This document shows, piece after piece, positions 17,129 to 51,970 of a stretch of 64,000 nucleotides of DNA (positions are counted from its first letter, which is position 1; every line of letters begins with the position of its first letter). Under the pieces are notes generated by a model. It was not told the origin of the DNA. It saw only the letters and a list, made by a program, of their open reading frames with translations, and did not search any database. Location of the stretch: positions 32,001-96,000 of the forward strand of contig JACPJW010000001.1 of NCBI GenBank assembly GCA_016187335.1, in the 5' to 3' direction. The DNA comes from Candidatus Aenigmatarchaeota archaeon. Lineage in GTDB: Archaea > Aenigmatarchaeota > Aenigmatarchaeia > GW2011-AR5. Made by a program: the position numbers and the translations under genes.

Positions 17129-17227
17129 TTGATCATCTTAATATTCTCAGATTTCAAGTGTTTGCACCTACCCTTTTTATATGCGAGGGGCCGGATTCGA
17201 ACCGACGAAGGCACTAAGCCACTAGGT

Positions 17228-17275
17228 ATCTCACATGAGACCAGATGGCTCCATGGCCTGAACATAGCCTCAGGA
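17228..17275 (-). other. BHB intron 2 of tRNA-Leu (canonical 37/38)
   Basis: Central helix CTTA/TGAG, bulges GG|T and AT|A. Confidence 0.85.
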
Positions 17276-17282
17276 CCTAAGC

Positions 17283-17305
17283 TTGGCTTACAGCTGTTAC
17301 CTGAT
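17283..17305 (-). other. BHB intron 1 of tRNA-Leu (position 30/31)
   Basis: Central helix GGCT/AGCC, bulges AG|A and AA|G. Confidence 0.85.
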
Positions 17306-17336
17306 CTAGCCCCTTTGTCCACTCGGGAACCCTCGC

Positions 17337-17994: not shown

Positions 17995-18044
17995 GTTTGT
18001 AATTTGTTACAGTCTTCAAATTGCTCCCGTAGTCTAGCCCGGCA

Positions 18045-18137
18045 AAGGAGAAACTGCGTTTCTCCCTTTACCCTCTTCCTTTCTGAAAAAGAAGGGAATG
18101 AGGTTACAAGGAGAGAACCGTAGGTTCTTCTCCTGTT
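18045..18137 (+). other. BHB intron 1 of tRNA-Glu (D-loop 20a/21), built of repeat modules
   Basis: Central helix CCGG/CCTG (3 of 4 pairs), bulges CA|A and TT|A, inner stem AGGAGAA/TTCTTCT. Confidence 0.75.
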
Positions 18138-18154
18138 AGGATATCGGCCTCTCA

Positions 18155-18234
18155 GCACCCTTTCTTTTGAAAAAGAAAGTGTGCACGGAAAGAAAACTTC
18201 AGAAAAGCGTGAACGGAAAGAATGGGTGGAAGTT
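18155..18234 (+). other. BHB intron 2 of tRNA-Glu (37/38), contains repeat module D
   Basis: Central helix CTCT/GAAG (one C-A mismatch), bulges CA|G and TT|C, inner stem CACCC/GGGTG. Confidence 0.85.
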
Positions 18235-18337
18235 CGCCGAAGACGCGGGTTCAAATCCCGCCGGGAGCATAGAATTATCGGGATATATATAGCAACGGAA
18301 AAATTGAACGCTGACGTATATCCTGAAGAATATAGAA

Positions 18338-24697: not shown

Positions 24698-24729
24698 CTT
24701 TTGATGAAACTTTGGAGCAGCAAAGTTTC
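24698..24729. repeat. Hairpin repeat module B just 3' of tRNA-Arg
   Basis: TTTTGATGAAACTTTGGAGCAGCAAAGTTTC resembles TTTTGATCAAACTTTGGAGTGGCAAA at 46901. Confidence 0.7.
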
Positions 24730-24763
24730 TATGAGCCCGATGGGATTCGAACCCACGACCTTC

Positions 24764-24796
24764 TTGGACCTATTCTTACATCACTGCAAAAACAGT
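24764..24796 (-). other. BHB intron 2 of tRNA-Arg (41/42)
   Basis: Central helix GGAC/GTCC, bulges CG|A and AA|G, inner stem CTGTTTTT/AAGAATAG. Confidence 0.88.
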
Positions 24797-24819
24797 CGGT
24801 CCGAAGCCGGACGCTCTAT

Positions 24820-24863
24820 TTGCCACAACTTTTCGTTTTGATGCAACTTTTCTGAAAAGTTGC
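24820..24863 (-). other. BHB intron 1 of tRNA-Arg (19/20), built of repeat module B
   Basis: Central helix GCCA/TGGC, bulges GG|G and AA|A, inner stem CAACTTTTC/GAAAAGTTG. Confidence 0.9.
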
Positions 24864-24928
24864 CCTGGCTAAGCTACGGGCCCAGCAGCATAATGATGTA
24901 TGTTAGAACAAGCGCTTATAAATTATAT

Positions 24929-45702: not shown

Positions 45703-46149
45703 CTAGCAGTTAGTTGCCGTTTTCTTGTAGGTATCGGTAACGCATAATGTGGATATGCGTGCCTGCGAAAAGTTTGCGCATGCCGTTATTGTGCCGTTGA
45801 TGAAAAACTGTATTGTCTTCATTTCTCCTTTCTTCAGCGTCACAGGGAGCGTTGAATTAAGGGTGGTGTTGACGCCCTGCTGGTTCAGCAAAAAAGCCGA
45901 CACGATTGTCTCGTCAACCTGGCCGGTGTTCCTTACGTTCACGCGGGAAATGTTTGCTGTGAAGTCCAGGTACACGTCCTCTATCCTCATGTTCTTGCCT
46001 GCGCATTCTGTTATTTCTGTTGAGCGGTTCGTGAGCGTCACTGACTGGTCCTTTGTAAGCCCGGTGACCCACGTCGAAATCGTTGACGCGAGCAGCACTG
46101 CCACTGCTATCAGCAGTACAGTCGCGATAAGGGGCGATACTCCTTTCAT
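45703..46149 (-). CDS. Archaeal type IV pilin
   Basis: MKG|VSPLIATVLL. Confidence 0.88.
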   Translation of the reverse strand: MKGVSPLIATVLLIAVAVLLASTISTWVTGLTKDQSVTLTNRSTEITECAGKNMRIEDVYLDFTANISRVNVRNTGQVDETIVSAFLLNQQGVNTTLNSTLPVTLKKGEMKTIQFFINGTITACANFSQARISTLCVTDTYKKTATNC

Positions 46150-46227
46150 AAGAAAACTTTGTCAGAAGTCCGTATATATAGTTTTTTGAAAGCCAGCTTC
46201 CCGCAACGGTTTTTCTCATTCATAATA

Positions 46228-46272
46228 TTTTCTTTTCCGTGAACGCTTTTCTTTTCAAAAGAAAAGGGTTCT
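46228..46272. repeat. Repeat module D
   Basis: Minus strand ACCCTTTTCTTTTGAAAAGAAAAGCGTTCACGGAAAAGAAAA. Confidence 0.85.
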
Positions 46273-46780
46273 AGCAGCTCTGGAAAGAAACGTCGCTGCC
46301 CGGGAATGAATCCACAGCGTCCTTCGGGCAGGTCGTGCTGACAACGATGACCTTGTCCGTGGCGTTCCTCAGGGAATTGCATTCCGCCGTGCTGACATTG
46401 GATACTGTCAAGACATCCGTTGCGTTCAGTTCCTTTGTTCCGTTCAGCTCGAAGGTGAACAATGCCCCGCTCGTGTTGAGGAAGTTTACGTCCCTCACGC
46501 TGACAGCTTTTTTCCCGCTGTTCACTATGGTTATCGTCATTGTATGGGATGTCCCCGCAGCGCAGTTGGAGTTGCAGTTGTAAGTGACGTTCCTAACATA
46601 GAGATCAGCAAACTGGCAGTCCAGTTTCGTTTTTGCAGTGTCCCTGATGTCTTCGGAGCGCTCCCTGAAATTTGTCGTCAGCCAGTTGGAAACTATTATA
46701 GTAAGCGTGACTCCTATGGCAACTATGAGGACAGCAGAAAGCAGGGTGCTTATCCCCAGAGAGCTCCGTCCCTTGCGCAT
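46271..46780 (-). CDS. Type IV pilin-like protein
   Basis: G|ISTLLSAVLIVAIGV; Cys-rich head. Confidence 0.8.
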   Translation of the reverse strand: MRKGRSSLGISTLLSAVLIVAIGVTLTIIVSNWLTTNFRERSEDIRDTAKTKLDCQFADLYVRNVTYNCNSNCAAGTSHTMTITIVNSGKKAVSVRDVNFLNTSGALFTFELNGTKELNATDVLTVSNVSTAECNSLRNATDKVIVVSTTCPKDAVDSFPGSDVSFQSC

Positions 46781-46859
46781 GATAATTATTGAAGAAAGGT
46801 ATATTTATTTGTCAGGCAAAACAGGCCGGAGCGGGGCGGGCGCATGTCGTCCTTTTTCA

Positions 46860-47145
46860 GCTTCCCGAGAAGCAAATTTTGAACTATAGCCACTAATCTC
46901 TTTTGATCAAACTTTGGAGTGGCAAATTTTGGACTATAACAACTAATCTCTTACCTTTTGATCAAACTTTACTTTTTGGTGCAACTTTTTTCTAAAATCT
47001 GCGAAAAGCAAAGCTTTTCGAGATCCTGAAGAACTTACGTTCTTCAAGGAAGTTGCTTTGGAGAAGCAAAGTTTACTTCCAACACGAGCCTCTTTTGATT
47101 TCCGTTTTGATCAAACTTTTTTGAAAAGTTTGGGAGAAGCAAAGT
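46860..47145. repeat. Repeat-filled spacer (modules B and C; ~50-bp imperfect tandem duplication)
   Basis: Three TTTTGATCAAACTTT copies; GAAAAGC-AAA-GCTTTTC; GAAGAAC-TTAC-GTTCTTC. Confidence 0.85.
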
Positions 47146-47604
47146 TTAGCTTATGGAAAGCTTTGCCGTGAAGTCAGGGCCGCAGTTGCCCGCGTATACT
47201 TCGATGCGCAGCGGCTTGGTGGCGTCAGAAGTGTTGTAGATGAACCAGTCGCTGAATCCCGGCGGCATCGGGTCCGAGACGTTAAAGTTCTTCATGGCGA
47301 TGTTGGAGTGCGCCTTGCTTTTTGCCGGGTCGGCGAAAATGACGTTGGCTGTAAGCGATGACAGGTTCAGGTTCGTCTTCAAATTTTTAACTTGTACGCT
47401 TACGATTTTGTCGGAAAACGCTGCGGTTGAAAGGTCAAGGGCGCCTATGCAGTTTGATTTTTCCTCGGACGTGGCAAGTTTCTGCTGCGAGAACGTCGTC
47501 GCCCATGTCGCCATTATGCCCGCGATTGCCATGGTGAATGCTATCAGCAGTACGGCAGCGATGAGAGGCGACACGCCTTTGCGCCCGTAAGGTATTTTCT
47601 GCAT
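47146..47604 (-). CDS. Archaeal type IV pilin (paralog of 54254..54691)
   Basis: RKG|VSPLIAAVLL. Confidence 0.88.
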   Translation of the reverse strand: MQKIPYGRKGVSPLIAAVLLIAFTMAIAGIMATWATTFSQQKLATSEEKSNCIGALDLSTAAFSDKIVSVQVKNLKTNLNLSSLTANVIFADPAKSKAHSNIAMKNFNVSDPMPPGFSDWFIYNTSDATKPLRIEVYAGNCGPDFTAKLSIS

Positions 47605-47648
47605 TTAAAAATCACTATAATTACTTTCTTTGCCCTGTTTAAATAATT

Positions 47649-48353
47649 TTAAGGCGTCCTCACGTTGCGCACGTCTACCTTAAGGAAATCCGCGCCTGCG
47701 TACAGCGTGTAATAGACATCGTAAGATATGGAGTTTGAAACATTGACGAATGCATGGGAGGTGCACGAAGGCAGCCCCCTTCCTGTGCGCAGGAGCTCCG
47801 TGAAGCCTGTCCCGCCGGCAAGGGTCGCGTTGCTGTCTATGGCTATTGTCGAATTTGTCACGTTTATCTGCGTCCCGCTCTCCTTTTCTGTCAGCGATAT
47901 TATTATGTCCTTCGTGCTGAGCGAAGGAAGCGGCGTTGCGTTGTTCACTTTCAGCAGCACTGCTTTGAAGAAGGTGTTCTCCATCGTGAGGTTGGCCGAG
48001 CTGTCGCATATCACGTCGGCGCCGCCCATATAGAGGATATTCTTGCCGGTTTTTCTGGAAAGATAGTCAACAACCGCCACGTTTGATTCCGTTCTGTACT
48101 GCACGACATCTTCCTGGGGGATGACCTCAAGGCCGCCCGGCGACTTGAACTTAACTACCCTCTTTGAGCCCAGGCCTTCCTTTGCGACTTCGCGGACCGC
48201 ATTGTCTATCTTTATCATGACGCTTTCCGCCTCCCTTATGCCTTCGCCTGTCCTTGCTGAATCCACGGCGGGCGCCCCTACATTCAGCGTTATGAATACG
48301 GCAGTGAGCGCTATTGCCGTCAGCAGCACGAAGGATACCACAGGGTTTGCCAT
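47649..48353 (-). CDS. Minor pilin-like protein
   Basis: N-terminal hydrophobic helix NPVVSFVLL; paralog of 52590..53393. Confidence 0.75.
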   Translation of the reverse strand: MANPVVSFVLLTAIALTAVFITLNVGAPAVDSARTGEGIREAESVMIKIDNAVREVAKEGLGSKRVVKFKSPGGLEVIPQEDVVQYRTESNVAVVDYLSRKTGKNILYMGGADVICDSSANLTMENTFFKAVLLKVNNATPLPSLSTKDIIISLTEKESGTQINVTNSTIAIDSNATLAGGTGFTELLRTGRGLPSCTSHAFVNVSNSISYDVYYTLYAGADFLKVDVRNVRTP

Positions 48354-48356
48354 TTT

Positions 48357-49082
48357 TCACCACGTTGCGTTGAAAGTGTTCTTTATCCTCAGGAAATCCT
48401 CCCTGCTTTTCAGCTTTATGTCGAAGAACCCGTGAAGCGCCGACTTTTCCTGCGTAGGCGGCGCAATCCTTGCAGGTATTGCCTCAATTACATTATCGCT
48501 GCGCCTTGCGTAAATAAGCGTGACATTGACAACTCCGCTTGAAACGCTTGAAGTGAACGACGCGCTGGCGTTGGTCTTGTCGTTCACTATGCCCATGGCA
48601 GCGGATGATGGCGTTGAGTCCGTTGCGTTGACCGTGACGTTTATGTTGTCATTCAGGAAATTGCCCACGGTCACCGTATATTTCGTGTTGTTTACAGAAA
48701 CTAATGCGTAAAGGATTTCTATATCCTCTTCGCCCCGCAGGAACGTGGAGAAATCCGCCAGGTTGGCTATGGCCGAGCTGTTCGCATTGCCCTGGACCCT
48801 GCTTACAATGATTATTTTCTCGTATTCGTGGTATATGTTTCTCAGTTCCTTGTCGAGAATCATCGTTTCCTGGAACCTTTTTTCCTCCAGCGTATTGTAT
48901 ATGCCGAAAACTCCGCGCAGGAGGAAGAACGCTATCAGGATTATCAGCCCGGCTATCACGAACATCTGCCCTTTAGAGGAGAAAAACCTGGCGGTTTTTC
49001 TCCCTCTACCCTCATTTCCCTTATTATTTTTTGACCTCTGAGAAGGTCTTCCGTTTTGATTGAACTTTTTTGAAAAGTTCAT
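48357..49082 (-). CDS. Minor pilin-like protein with 38-aa repeat-encoded leader
   Basis: ATG overlaps the upstream TGA (ATGA); MNFSKKFNQ...RFFSSKG|QMFVIAG. Confidence 0.8.
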   Translation of the reverse strand: MNFSKKFNQNGRPSQRSKNNKGNEGRGRKTARFFSSKGQMFVIAGLIILIAFFLLRGVFGIYNTLEEKRFQETMILDKELRNIYHEYEKIIIVSRVQGNANSSAIANLADFSTFLRGEEDIEILYALVSVNNTKYTVTVGNFLNDNINVTVNATDSTPSSAAMGIVNDKTNASASFTSSVSSGVVNVTLIYARRSDNVIEAIPARIAPPTQEKSALHGFFDIKLKSREDFLRIKNTFNATW

Positions 49083-49504
49083 ATTTTTCTCCACATCCAT
49101 AGTATCACTTTTTTGCCTGTGTATACGTTGCGGTAATCGGCGATGTAATATTTTACAGCCACCACGGTCTCGTTTCCTGCCACCGAAGCGGAAGAGCAGT
49201 TGGACTTGCATATGTTTACCTCGTAAGCGAGGTTCTTGGAAAGTAAAGGTGACAGGAGGCTTTTTAGTTCCGCTTCGTTGCTGCTGGACACGATGCGCCG
49301 CAGGTCGCCGTACTTGTCCATGTACTCCAGAGATTCAAAGCCCTGCTGCTTGATGTTGCTTATTTCCAGCTCGGGCCTCTGCGACGGCACGCTGAACATC
49401 ACGCTTATGCTGATGAGTATCAGCGTGATTATGACAAGGGCTTCAAGTGTGTAGATGTACCCTTTAGAGGAGAAAAACCTTGGTTTTTCTCCTCCTATCC
49501 TCAT
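49079..49504 (-). CDS. Minor pilin-like protein, repeat-encoded leader
   Basis: MRIGGEKPRFFSSKG|YIYTLEAL; frame stays open through repeats to 49642. Confidence 0.8.
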   Translation of the reverse strand: MRIGGEKPRFFSSKGYIYTLEALVIITLILISISVMFSVPSQRPELEISNIKQQGFESLEYMDKYGDLRRIVSSSNEAELKSLLSPLLSKNLAYEVNICKSNCSSASVAGNETVVAVKYYIADYRNVYTGKKVILWMWRKI

Positions 49505-49718
49505 TTCCTTATTATTTTTTTGATAGAACTTTTTTTGTAAAAAAGTTCTACTCATTCCCTTATTATTTTCTTTCATTTCATTACCCTTTTCCTCGAAGAA
49601 CGAAGTTCTTCGGGATTTCGAAGAAATTTTATTTCTTCGCAAATGATGAAACTTTTCGGAAAAGTTTCGGTTATCCGACCATTTTATTTTTTTGATGAAA
49701 CTTTTTTCTAAAAAGTTT
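49460..49718. repeat. Array of modules A, B and C
   Basis: GGAGAAAAACC-TT-GGTTTTTCTCC; three B hairpins; GAAGAAC-GAA-GTTCTTC. Confidence 0.85.
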
Positions 49719-51362
49719 CTACCATACCTTCACGATCATCTTTCCTTTCCTTATTCCGGCAGTCGAGTTCTGCAGCAGTACGAAGCGCTGCAGCGAAACG
49801 ACATTGCTCGTCTTCGGGAGCGTATCGCCGACATCCAGCGCCGTGGCATTTGTGTCCACATCAGTTATCTTTATCCTGAAGCTTCCTTCCATTCCCATGC
49901 CCTGCTTTATGTGCGTTGCGTTAGTGAGATTTATTTGCGCGAGCTTGTCGTACTGGATAACGTCAATTCTTTCCGGCGTGAAAACCGTTTCAGTCAGGTT
50001 GTCAACGCCGCTGACGGTGTTTGCGGGACCGGCAAAACGACGGCTGTCGTCGTCAAAAAAAGCGGTGTACCACCTTTCCTGGCTCGCGTTTACCTCAACG
50101 ATGAAAGAAAAGTTCTGGCCGGCTCTCTGGTAAGGCACGGAGCGGTTGTAGTCGTCGTATATCACCACGGAATTCAGGTCGTAGCTCTCGGTGAACGATG
50201 AAATGTTGAAGACAACAAGCTCATTTGTTATTCTTGCAACAGGATCGCTGGCGTTGCGCAAAAACGGTGCCGTGTTGTTTATAAGTATGGGCATCTTGTA
50301 CGCCGTTGTTTTCAGCCCCAGCCTGCGCAGCTTCCTGCCGAACTCGAAGTGCTCGCTTATTTCTGTAGTGTTCAGCGAGCGGTTGTACAAGCGCACCTCG
50401 TCTATGGTGCCGTTGAAGAACGAAGCAGCTGCGCCCCCTTTTCCGCCTACGGTTGTGGCTAAAGCCGGGCCGAAGACGGACGAAGGTACGCTGCTTTTGT
50501 TGCTGTTTTCAAGAACGCCGTTGACATACACATCTAAGGATGTATTCGTCCTGTAAACGCCGGCAACATGGTACCATACGTTGTTGGACAATGTCGTGTT
50601 GCTTGCTGCATTAAACACGCTTGTTCCGTCGCCGGATATCCTGAAGTCAGCATTATCGTTGCTGTTCAAGAACAATGCGTAGGATCTTTGGCTGTTTCCC
50701 GTTTCAAACTTGCTGACGATGGATTTCGTTCCGGATGATTCAGGACGAATCCACGCCTCTATAGTGAAATTTCCGGTGACGTTTGTTGCTGCGTTGCTGC
50801 TGACATTGACGGCGCTGTTTATGCCGTTGAACGCGCATGCGCTGAGTATCATTCCCTGCACGGTCTGGTTGCAGTCAAGCCCCCCCGACCCAGTGCCGTC
50901 ATTCCTTGAATTGCTTGAATCGTTTGTGGAATTATCAAGCCTGAGGAGGAATACTGTGCTGGCGTCAAGAAATGAAGGCGGCCAGTCCTTTGGCGTGTAT
51001 TCACTGTCCGCTACGCCGCGCAGGGTTTCCGCCTCGCTGCGAATCTGCGCAATATCGGCGATATCCTTTATCGGCGTCACGAAATTGCTGAATGAAAGCA
51101 CGATGAACGCAAATAGAACCAGAAACAGACCCGTGGCTATGACAAAATCCAGCTGTATCGCGCCCTTCAAAGAGAAGAAACCTGCGGTTTCTCTCTCTTG
51201 ACTCTCACGCTCGAAGAAACGAAGTTTCTTCGGCGTCTCAAAGAGCTTCGCTCTTTGCAGATTTCCCTTATTTAAAATATTATTTTTTTGATAGAAATTT
51301 TTTTCTAAAAAAGTTCTCCTAATTTCCTTTCTAGAAATATTATTTAAAATTTCTCTTCCCAT
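49719..51362 (-). CDS. Minor pilin with LamG domain and ~67-aa repeat-encoded leader
   Basis: FFSLKG|AIQLDFVIA; FTIEAWIRP, WYHVAGVY, FNGTIDEVRLYNRSL. Confidence 0.85.
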   Translation of the reverse strand: MGREILNNISRKEIRRTFLEKNFYQKNNILNKGNLQRAKLFETPKKLRFFERESQERETAGFFSLKGAIQLDFVIATGLFLVLFAFIVLSFSNFVTPIKDIADIAQIRSEAETLRGVADSEYTPKDWPPSFLDASTVFLLRLDNSTNDSSNSRNDGTGSGGLDCNQTVQGMILSACAFNGINSAVNVSSNAATNVTGNFTIEAWIRPESSGTKSIVSKFETGNSQRSYALFLNSNDNADFRISGDGTSVFNAASNTTLSNNVWYHVAGVYRTNTSLDVYVNGVLENSNKSSVPSSVFGPALATTVGGKGGAAASFFNGTIDEVRLYNRSLNTTEISEHFEFGRKLRRLGLKTTAYKMPILINNTAPFLRNASDPVARITNELVVFNISSFTESYDLNSVVIYDDYNRSVPYQRAGQNFSFIVEVNASQERWYTAFFDDDSRRFAGPANTVSGVDNLTETVFTPERIDVIQYDKLAQINLTNATHIKQGMGMEGSFRIKITDVDTNATALDVGDTLPKTSNVVSLQRFVLLQNSTAGIRKGKMIVKVW

Positions 51363-51367
51363 ATCAA

Positions 51368-51970
51368 TCAAACGTTTGTTACGCTTACTTCGTCGGTGCC
51401 GTTGTCGTACCTGACATAGCTTATTTCGCTCTTTCCGCCGCTGGTGCCGCCCCTGAAGGTTGCGTTGAATCCCATGACGCACGTGTCGTTGATGTAAGGG
51501 GTGCCCAGGGTTTCAACAAGCAGCGTGTCGTTTGCAAATCTTGTCCTGTATTTCAGCCCGCCTATTTTTTCGGGCATTGAGACGATTATCCTGCCCAGAG
51601 TCGTGTTCGTCCTTGAAACGTATTCGCGCGGTATCATGAGCTTTTCAACGGATGTTTTCATTATGTCGCACGTCTGCAGAATCTCCTTTTTGCCGACGAA
51701 TTTCTTGTTCTCGTCTATGAGCGAGTTCATCGTGGAAACTATAATCCATATCATGATCAGGCTGAAAGCAACGGCAAACGCATGCATCACGAGCTGCGAC
51801 TGGCCTTTACGGGAGAAGAAACTACGTTTCTCTCCCTGTACCCTCATTTCCTTATTATTTTTTACAGAACTCTGAGAAGTTCTACCGTTTTGATTGAACT
51901 TCCTTCGAAAACCACAGGTTTTCGGGGACTCAGGAAAGCTATGCTTTCCTCGAGTTTTTGAAAAGTTCAT
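51368..51970 (-). CDS. Minor pilin-like protein with 56-aa repeat-encoded leader
   Basis: GGTGA Shine-Dalgarno and ATGA overlap at 51970; SFFSRKG|QSQLVMHAF. Confidence 0.82.
   Translation of the reverse strand: MNFSKTRGKHSFPESPKTCGFRRKFNQNGRTSQSSVKNNKEMRVQGEKRSFFSRKGQSQLVMHAFAVAFSLIMIWIIVSTMNSLIDENKKFVGKKEILQTCDIMKTSVEKLMIPREYVSRTNTTLGRIIVSMPEKIGGLKYRTRFANDTLLVETLGTPYINDTCVMGFNATFRGGTSGGKSEISYVRYDNGTDEVSVTNV

Follow-up and report, generated by a model that had tools for sequence, protein, structure and literature searches.

The window, by which we mean the whole stretch of 64,000 nucleotides of DNA that was analysed, carries on its minus strand a tRNA-Arg(UCG) gene of 152 nt (24883..24732) that is interrupted twice. 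The elements of the locus are as follows, in the 5′ to 3′ order of the gene.

24916..24922, minus strand: candidate TATA box TTTATAA, read from the sequence and centred ~36 nt 5′ of G1
24883 and 24732, minus strand: the two ends of the gene, G1 and the discriminator A73, with no encoded CCA
24864..24883, minus strand: exon 1, positions 1-19, with the acceptor 5′ strand, the D-stem 5′ strand and the D-loop through G18 G19
24820..24863, minus strand: intron 1, 44 nt following G19 at site 19/20, in the D-loop
24797..24819, minus strand: exon 2, positions 20-41, including A20 and the anticodon loop CUUCGGA
24764..24796, minus strand: intron 2, 33 nt at site 41/42, in the 3′ strand of the anticodon stem
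24732..24763, minus strand: exon 3, positions 42-73, with the end of the anticodon stem, the variable loop, the T-arm and the acceptor 3′ strand

The tRNA-Arg(UCG) locus and its splice motifs

The sequence runs through the acceptor 5′ strand, UA, the D-stem strand and AGCCAGG, where it is interrupted by 44 extra bases. It resumes with AUAGAGC, G and UCCGG CUUCGGA CCG, followed by 33 extra bases, and is completed by GA AGGUC, the T-arm, the acceptor 3′ strand and the discriminator A. When 24863..24820 and 24796..24764 are both deleted, ARAGORN returns a flawless 75-nt tRNA-Arg(tcg) cloverleaf, in which all four arms are intact and there is a single G2.U71 pair. The preliminary description had placed a tRNA-Arg(TCG) with introns at 19/20 and 41/42 on these nucleotides, and the restored cloverleaf confirms both the tRNA and the two sites. 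Deletion of just one segment leads to wrong or distorted calls. In the raw DNA of the window no tRNA is called by ARAGORN, or by Rfam at the gathering threshold, and at the locus itself Rfam matches the T-arm alone, with 14 bits. ARAGORN calls the unspliced precursor a tRNA-Leu with a 76-nt intron, a miscall to judge from the Arg cloverleaf obtained after the double deletion.

The genome is 1.01 Mb in two contigs, with 47% G+C, and is 91% complete. A search of it with the mature sequence matches the three exons of 24883..24732 and an unrelated T-arm; this is therefore the sole UCG gene in the assembly. A20 is a main identity base for ArgRS. It is also the first base of exon 2, so that it would be misplaced in the unspliced RNA. 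The 152-nt precursor would probably be transcribed from the TATA box ~36 nt upstream. The assignment of TTTATAA as promoter is a reading of the sequence, and comparable A/T boxes lie 30-40 nt upstream of the orthologous genes. On folding, the precursor would expose one bulge-helix-bulge (BHB) motif for each intron. The single EndA would then cut each bulge between its second and third bases, RtcB would ligate the three exons, and CCA would be added later.

In the BHB geometry that we applied, the 5′ exon ends with four bases of the central helix and two of the bulge, the intron ends in the same way, and the cut falls between bulge bases two and three. In intron 1 the central helix is GCCA/UGGC, with all four pairs Watson-Crick, and the bulges are GG↓G and AA↓A (arrows mark the cuts). 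The inner helix h′ comprises 9 bp (CAACUUUUC/GAAAAGUUG), and the outer helix h has 3 bp (A14-U20a, U13-A21 and U12.G22) that are in competition with the D-stem. This is a full hBHBh′ motif, and its strict form lies at +0.4 kcal/mol relative to the minimum free energy (MFE) fold. The central helix of intron 2 is GGAC/GUCC, formed between G36-C39 and GUCC, again with four Watson-Crick pairs; the bulges are CG↓A and AA↓G, the 5′ one being of 3 nt, and the inner helix has 11 bp. A C35.A43 mismatch adjoins the 3′ bulge, with further pairs beyond. Thus the perfect 4-bp central helices of the preliminary description are present in both introns, but its term strict applies fully to intron 1 and is slightly overstated for intron 2, where no adjacent pair closes the 3′ bulge.

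The MFE fold includes the motif of intron 1, while the 3′ splice site of intron 2 is base paired. Enforcing the BHB of intron 2 costs +3.4 kcal/mol relative to the MFE and still leaves the 3′ bulge unclosed; with both introns enforced the cost is +3.8 kcal/mol. The motif of intron 2 is near-strict or relaxed. Pairing of its 3′ splice site in the MFE fold, together with the missing closing pair in the BHB register, means that its cleavage needs an enzyme tolerant of relaxed motifs. An alternative 31-nt register for intron 2 (24795..24765) also has a perfect central helix, but was rejected because the anticodon stem is broken. The precursor folds better than shuffled sequences (z = -3.86). BHB candidates in which all four central pairs are Watson-Crick and the inner helix measures 9 bp or more occur in 8 of 1000 dinucleotide shuffles, and the real sequence has three such candidates, which include both introns. 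A search for permuted (circular-intron) junctions returned chance 10-mers alone.

Interrupted tRNA genes and the splicing enzymes

How widespread are such interruptions in this genome? In a census restricted to genes whose T-arm is intact and whose acceptor strands match, which leaves out those with a T-loop intron, 26 tRNA genes have a median length of 146 nt. Most are longer than 92 nt (22 genes); two measure 79-92 nt and two are of 78 nt or less. This bears out the genome-wide intron expansion that had been suggested from the window. A census by BHB enumeration with ARAGORN was set aside, as it yielded a partial tRNA set, relaxed motifs being missed at the strict thresholds that are tractable. 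Three T-arm signatures are found in the window, those of tRNA-Arg(UCG), tRNA-Leu(CAG) and tRNA-Glu(CUC), the latter two at the loci 17182-17336 (minus strand) and 18023-18269 (plus strand). All three were initially described as double-intron genes. This is correct for Arg and for Leu(CAG), which is solved with introns of 42 and 29 nt; in Glu(CUC) two insertions are seen by eye, a long one in the D-loop and a long one at the canonical site. Elsewhere in the window an archaeal SRP RNA (42695-43085, plus strand; 97.9-bit match) has a stretch of 142 nt where the model has 23 nt, and no convincing BHB was found around this insertion.

EndA is encoded by a single gene (G000:C2:410532-411029; L001:1474-2082, minus strand), as an ORF of 202 aa with the N and C domains (PF02778 and PF01974), and a second subunit was not detected in the genome. 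RtcB is likewise the product of one gene (C2:765179-766423). The best PDB match of EndA is the alpha4 enzyme of M. jannaschii (1a79, E 6e-33), and its closest relatives, with up to 90% identity, come from Candidatus Aenigmatarchaeota MAGs, mostly from groundwater. The architecture of the enzyme, which had been proposed as a point to check, is that of a single-gene alpha4-like EndA with alanine at the canonical lysine. It has the single two-domain subunit of the alpha4 type (~180 aa) and lacks the complete Tyr-His-Lys triad. The tyrosine and histidine align, and the position of M. jannaschii Lys156 is occupied by alanine (RKK becomes RAR). Among 76 scorable Aenigmatarchaeota homologues this residue is alanine in 73, serine in three and lysine in none. 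The spacing from the tyrosine to the histidine motif is 14-15 residues in all 76, compared with 8 in M. jannaschii, and a six-residue lysine-rich insertion found across the clade before the catalytic histidine aligns with the Nanoarchaeum equitans alpha subunit. The substitution in the only EndA of the organism counts against the reading of the tRNA gene as functional.

Heavily disrupted tRNA genes, such as those of this DPANN genome, are known from DPANN archaea with an alpha4 EndA carrying the L3 insertion (Kaneta et al. 2018, PMC5829648) and from ARMAN-2, which has an epsilon2 EndA (Fujishima et al. 2011, PMC3239211). The disrupted fraction reaches 87% in archaea with (alpha-beta)2 enzymes and 56% in ARMAN-2 (PMC3239211). 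Compared with the published L3 enzymes, the lysine-rich insertion found here is a candidate equivalent of L3 that might furnish the missing lysine, and the canonical lysine is replaced by alanine or serine in the 76 homologues.

There is a further parallel in the Thermoproteales. Reviews of the work on their multi-intron tRNAs (Sugahara et al. 2007, 2008, as covered in PMC4090602 and PMC4033280) describe several non-canonical BHB introns per gene, introns in the D-arm and anticodon stem, interruption of most tRNA genes and failure of standard finders to detect them, all of which are encountered here. In contrast to the organisms treated there, the present one is a member of the DPANN (Aenigmatarchaeota) with a 1-Mb genome, and it has a single-gene alpha4-like EndA in place of an (alpha-beta)2 enzyme with the crenarchaeal loop. 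Sites 19/20 and 41/42 are absent from the example positions that these reviews give, where position strings containing a slash do not lend themselves to text searching.

Introns of tRNA-Arg(UCG) across the order

The mature tRNA-Arg(UCG) was used to search 70 genomes of the same order, and some 70 loci were fetched. Introns were placed by spliced alignment followed by refinement guided by BHB motifs and ARAGORN, and the genomes are related rather than independent samples. Raw spliced alignment alone produced spurious terminal ‘introns’, and G005, G012, G053 and several others are left unsolved. The orthologues have between zero and two introns, at more than ten positions overall, distributed as follows (G000 is the present genome).

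No intron: G006, G041, G062, G063 and G064
Sites 15/16 to 17/18, and 22/23: a few genomes each
Site 19/20: G000, G024 (genus g12), G042 (g17) and G030 (family f7), all ending in ..AA↓AUAG
Site 30/31: about ten genomes
Site 37/38: about nine genomes
Site 39/40: three genomes
Site 41/42: G000, G015, G044, G055 and G057, solved; G059 and G033, with weaker solutions
Site 59/60: G026 and G067, solved; G029, by spliced alignment only

The 41/42 introns of the relatives are 13-22 nt long and have a central helix GGAC/GUCY. The preliminary description had called this site rare; six or more further genomes of the order have it in their tRNA-Arg(UCG), so that it is not rare in this clade. Intron 2 itself has no second copy in the genome by BLAST. 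By sequence comparison it is private to this gene, lying at a site that tRNA-Arg(UCG) reuses across the order. Helices are kept while the interiors of the introns diverge freely, the signature expected of BHB introns. The combination of 19/20 with 41/42 is confined to the present genome among the solved orthologues. In G001, a 56%-complete genome of the same genus, the UCG gene is rather different and has a 37/38 intron alone; this counts against our reading of the locus. The tRNA-Arg of G042 (L041) has its 5′ end duplicated in tandem over 16 nt.

Taken together, these data make it highly probable that 24883..24732 is a functional, single-copy, twice-interrupted tRNA-Arg(UCG) gene of an Aenigmatarchaeota (DPANN) archaeon. 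That it might instead be a decaying pseudogene or orphan fragment, broken by insertions of a palindromic repeat and giving no functional tRNA, is suggested by the blindness of standard finders to the locus and by repeat copies within and directly after the gene, but is very improbable given three intact exons that assemble into a flawless UCG cloverleaf, insertions that both lie within well-formed BHB motifs, the lack in the assembly of any other UCG gene, the recurrence of both intron sites in orthologues and the similar appearance of the majority of the tRNA genes of this genome. Considered alone, tRNA-Arg(UCG) is an ordinary, if extreme, intron-bearing tRNA for an intron-riddled lineage.

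The cassette intron and its dispersed hairpin

Intron 1 is a member of a family of near-identical cassette introns of 44-50 nt that occupy at least eight tRNA genes of this genome. The cassette consists of a hairpin, a tail ATCAAAASG, a duplicate of the hairpin 3′ arm and a site-specific stretch of four bases. At its core is a dispersed hairpin-plus-tail repeat, module B. Intron 1 reads as one bulge base, the 5′ arm CAACUUUUC, the proximal arm and tail, the distal arm GAAAAGUUG, UGGC and AA, with the following components.

24834..24863, minus strand: copy of module B, the first 30 bases of the intron
24826..24834, minus strand: distal arm, the second copy of the hairpin 3′ arm, paired with the 5′ arm as h′ in the MFE fold
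24822..24825, minus strand: site-specific UGGC, paired with exon GCCA (15-17a) as the central helix

The preliminary description equated the D-loop intron with module B. This is right for the first 30 nt, but the intron has 44 nt, the second arm and the 4-nt site-specific segment being additional. Module B was also said to occur in the same sense at 49081..49052; the copy there, which agrees at 25 of 28 aligned positions, lies in sense orientation within the leader of a minus-strand, pilin-like ORF. The copy within intron 1 has 100% identity over 28-34 nt with four other loci, and such identical copies make it possible to point to candidate donor and recipient sites.

By BLAST and pattern scans the repeat is present in the genome in 49-70 copies. 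The consensus is two variable bases, AACTTTTC, a loop of 2-3 nt, GAAAAGTT, two variable bases and ATCAAAA(C/G)G, and the outer two bases of the stem covary between the arms from copy to copy. Fifteen copies lie in recognised tRNA genes, and eight of these are directly followed by a distal arm with matching variable bases; the distal arm is seldom found beside copies elsewhere. The best BHB of all eight cassettes follows one layout: a single bulge base precedes the 5′ arm and the remainder of the module, after which come the distal arm, a 4-nt segment able to pair with the local exon and, at the end, two bases of the bulge. Two of the cassettes sit in the T-loop at 59/60, two in the D-loop and four in the anticodon loop, several of the last group at the canonical 37/38 or close to it.

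The 5′ arm of the cassette can pair either with its own 3′ arm or with the downstream copy, and only the latter pairing generates the inner helix of the BHB. For intron 1 the MFE fold has the distal pairing, while the centroid has the proximal hairpin. The 19/20 intron of G024 has the same layout, and the three arms differ in step, being CAAC/GUUG/GUUG in the present genome and AAGC/GCUU/GCUU in G024. Thus both alternative pairings of the 5′ arm are preserved. A hairpin of the module type (GAAACTTTTTTAATAAAAAGTTTCATCAAAAAG) also sits within the 37/38 intron of tRNA-Arg(UCG) in G036 (L051), a member of another family of the order (f7), and the repeat family is therefore either old or widely spreading.

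How might the cassette have come to lie in so many genes? It is quite possible, if short of probable, that the whole cassette moves between tRNA genes, whether by intron transposition, by gene conversion between tRNAs with similar 5′ halves or by reverse splicing at the RNA level; the intergenic hairpins would then be derivatives of the cassette or its source. The 44-50-nt architecture recurs at no fewer than six sites, with only the last six bases being specific to the site, as movement of the entire unit would predict. Moreover tRNA-Lys(CUU) of the congener G001 (L003, G001:C78:6525-6706) has much the same intron in the same place in the D-loop: at 19/20 it carries 42 nt of the module type, with ~80% identity to intron 1, and the first guide base there follows the exon (A-U becomes U.G). 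That locus was at first taken for the tRNA-Arg orthologue, an impression corrected by its identity as tRNA-Lys(CUU); by eye it has a second intron, at 36/37. A difficulty for movement of the cassette is that the four guide bases vary among the copies and hence must change at every move. No reverse transcriptase was found, there being no match to PF00078 in the 91%-complete genome, and vertical descent with many losses could also give the patchy distribution.

An unlikely alternative, though one with several observations in its favour, is that a mobile DNA hairpin of the MITE or REP type inserted into the D-loop, the distal arm and UGGC being added or selected later. The core of the cassette is indeed an abundant dispersed repeat with identical copies, and outside tRNA genes these lie between genes. 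On contig C2, 51 of the 65 copies are on the minus strand, compared with 55% of ORFs. Of 32 copies with a same-strand upstream ORF, 13 begin within -3..+4 nt of its stop codon, which may even be supplied by the initial bases of the repeat (TAA/TGA); examples in the window are at 47103-47130 and 49052-49081. Upstream of a tRNA-Met gene (G000:C2:738991-739060, minus strand) a 34-nt copy of the module is flanked by a 16-nt copy of the tRNA 5′ end (GCCGAAGTGGCTCAGT) and by the gene, a direct duplication that resembles target duplication. Against this, no target-site duplication was found flanking intron 1, and the genome at 91% completeness yielded no TnpB and no Y1 transposase above threshold, the sole Y1_Tnp match being a 16.7-bit fragment with a stop codon; nor, as noted above, was a reverse transcriptase seen. 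An insertion into an essential single-copy tRNA must be spliceable from birth, which a bare hairpin is not, and the copies in introns form a separate subclass with the distal arm. Module B shares with REP/MITE-type prokaryotic repeats its shortness, abundance, strand bias, palindromic and covarying stems and mostly intergenic location. It differs from them in that terminal inverted repeats with target duplication and a cognate transposase were not found here, and in that its copies form the working helix of introns.

Copies of the repeat are also found among protein-coding genes of the window. In a tandem cluster of ORFs at 44500-51500 (minus strand) with class III (archaeal type IV pilin-like) signal-peptide segments, some copies are intergenic, and degenerate copies lie in frame within long N-terminal leaders (..FSKKFNQNG.., ..TFLQKKFYQKNN..). 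A predicted leader of this kind holds the copy at 49081..49052 in frame, ahead of a class III signal-peptide-like segment, in keeping with the prepilin leader of the preliminary description. A role for module B as a promoter was considered and rejected, as a separate TATA-like box precedes the tRNA gene and copies of the module are found in introns and directly after stop codons too.

It is rather unlikely that the hairpin-plus-tail is a host signal acting at the RNA level, in 3′-end formation, processing or protein binding, and is kept in introns for some function there, for example as a two-state fold that gates splicing. Covariation of the stem across copies and the closeness of copies to stop codons would suit such a signal, as would the three-way covariation of the arms that retains both pairings and the difference between the MFE and centroid folds. 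So would the placement of one further element at this locus.

24698..24729, minus strand: variant module, GAAACUUUG..CAAAGUUUC plus AUCAAAAG, starting 2 nt past the 3′ end of tRNA-Arg

A hairpin-plus-ATCAAAAG module follows tRNA-Arg(UCG) by 2 nt both here and in G024 (L044); the stems differ and each is internally complementary, so that the position is kept though the sequence is not. However, the hairpin is followed by no U-tract and matches no Rfam family, and its orientation shows no more than a weak preference relative to its neighbours, the upstream gene sharing its strand in 32 of 53 cases and the downstream gene in 34 of 53. A terminator within a tRNA gene would moreover be harmful. Hairpin-plus-tail elements directly after tRNA 3′ ends occur in other families of the order as well.

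Movement of the whole cassette can be carried a step further, to a proposal that we put forward as speculative and, on present evidence, improbable. The cassette may be an active minimal mobile intron that colonises any tRNA site able to complete a BHB with its 4-nt exon-complementary guide, its bistable 5′ arm aiding movement or regulation, with the ~70 hairpins as its relics or reservoir. The cassette family matches the pattern of ‘intron transposition’ set out for the Thermoproteales (PMC4090602, PMC4033280). It differs from what is described there in that the cassette core is also an abundant intergenic hairpin repeat, and the cassette has a defined layout. Earlier work likewise met D-arm introns that escape tRNAscan-type tools and repeated gains at BHB-competent sites, but no route of arrival, which a recognisable repeated cassette would mark here.

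The origin and spread of archaeal tRNA introns is an open question, for which the literature offers hints from sequence similarity only, as in the transposition proposed for the Thermoproteales. The parts of the present analysis that are worth following are the architecture of the cassette and the turnover of introns across the order in one tRNA. The sole EndA of this archaeon, without the textbook catalytic lysine, must handle most of the cellular tRNAs. Ranging from intronless to double-intron genes within a single order, tRNA-Arg(UCG) provides a clean system in which to reconstruct gain and loss, and a hairpin cassette shared among tRNA genes is a lead on how introns spread. Should the cassette prove to be an active mobile intron, intron 1 of tRNA-Arg would represent a recent and traceable birth of a tRNA intron.
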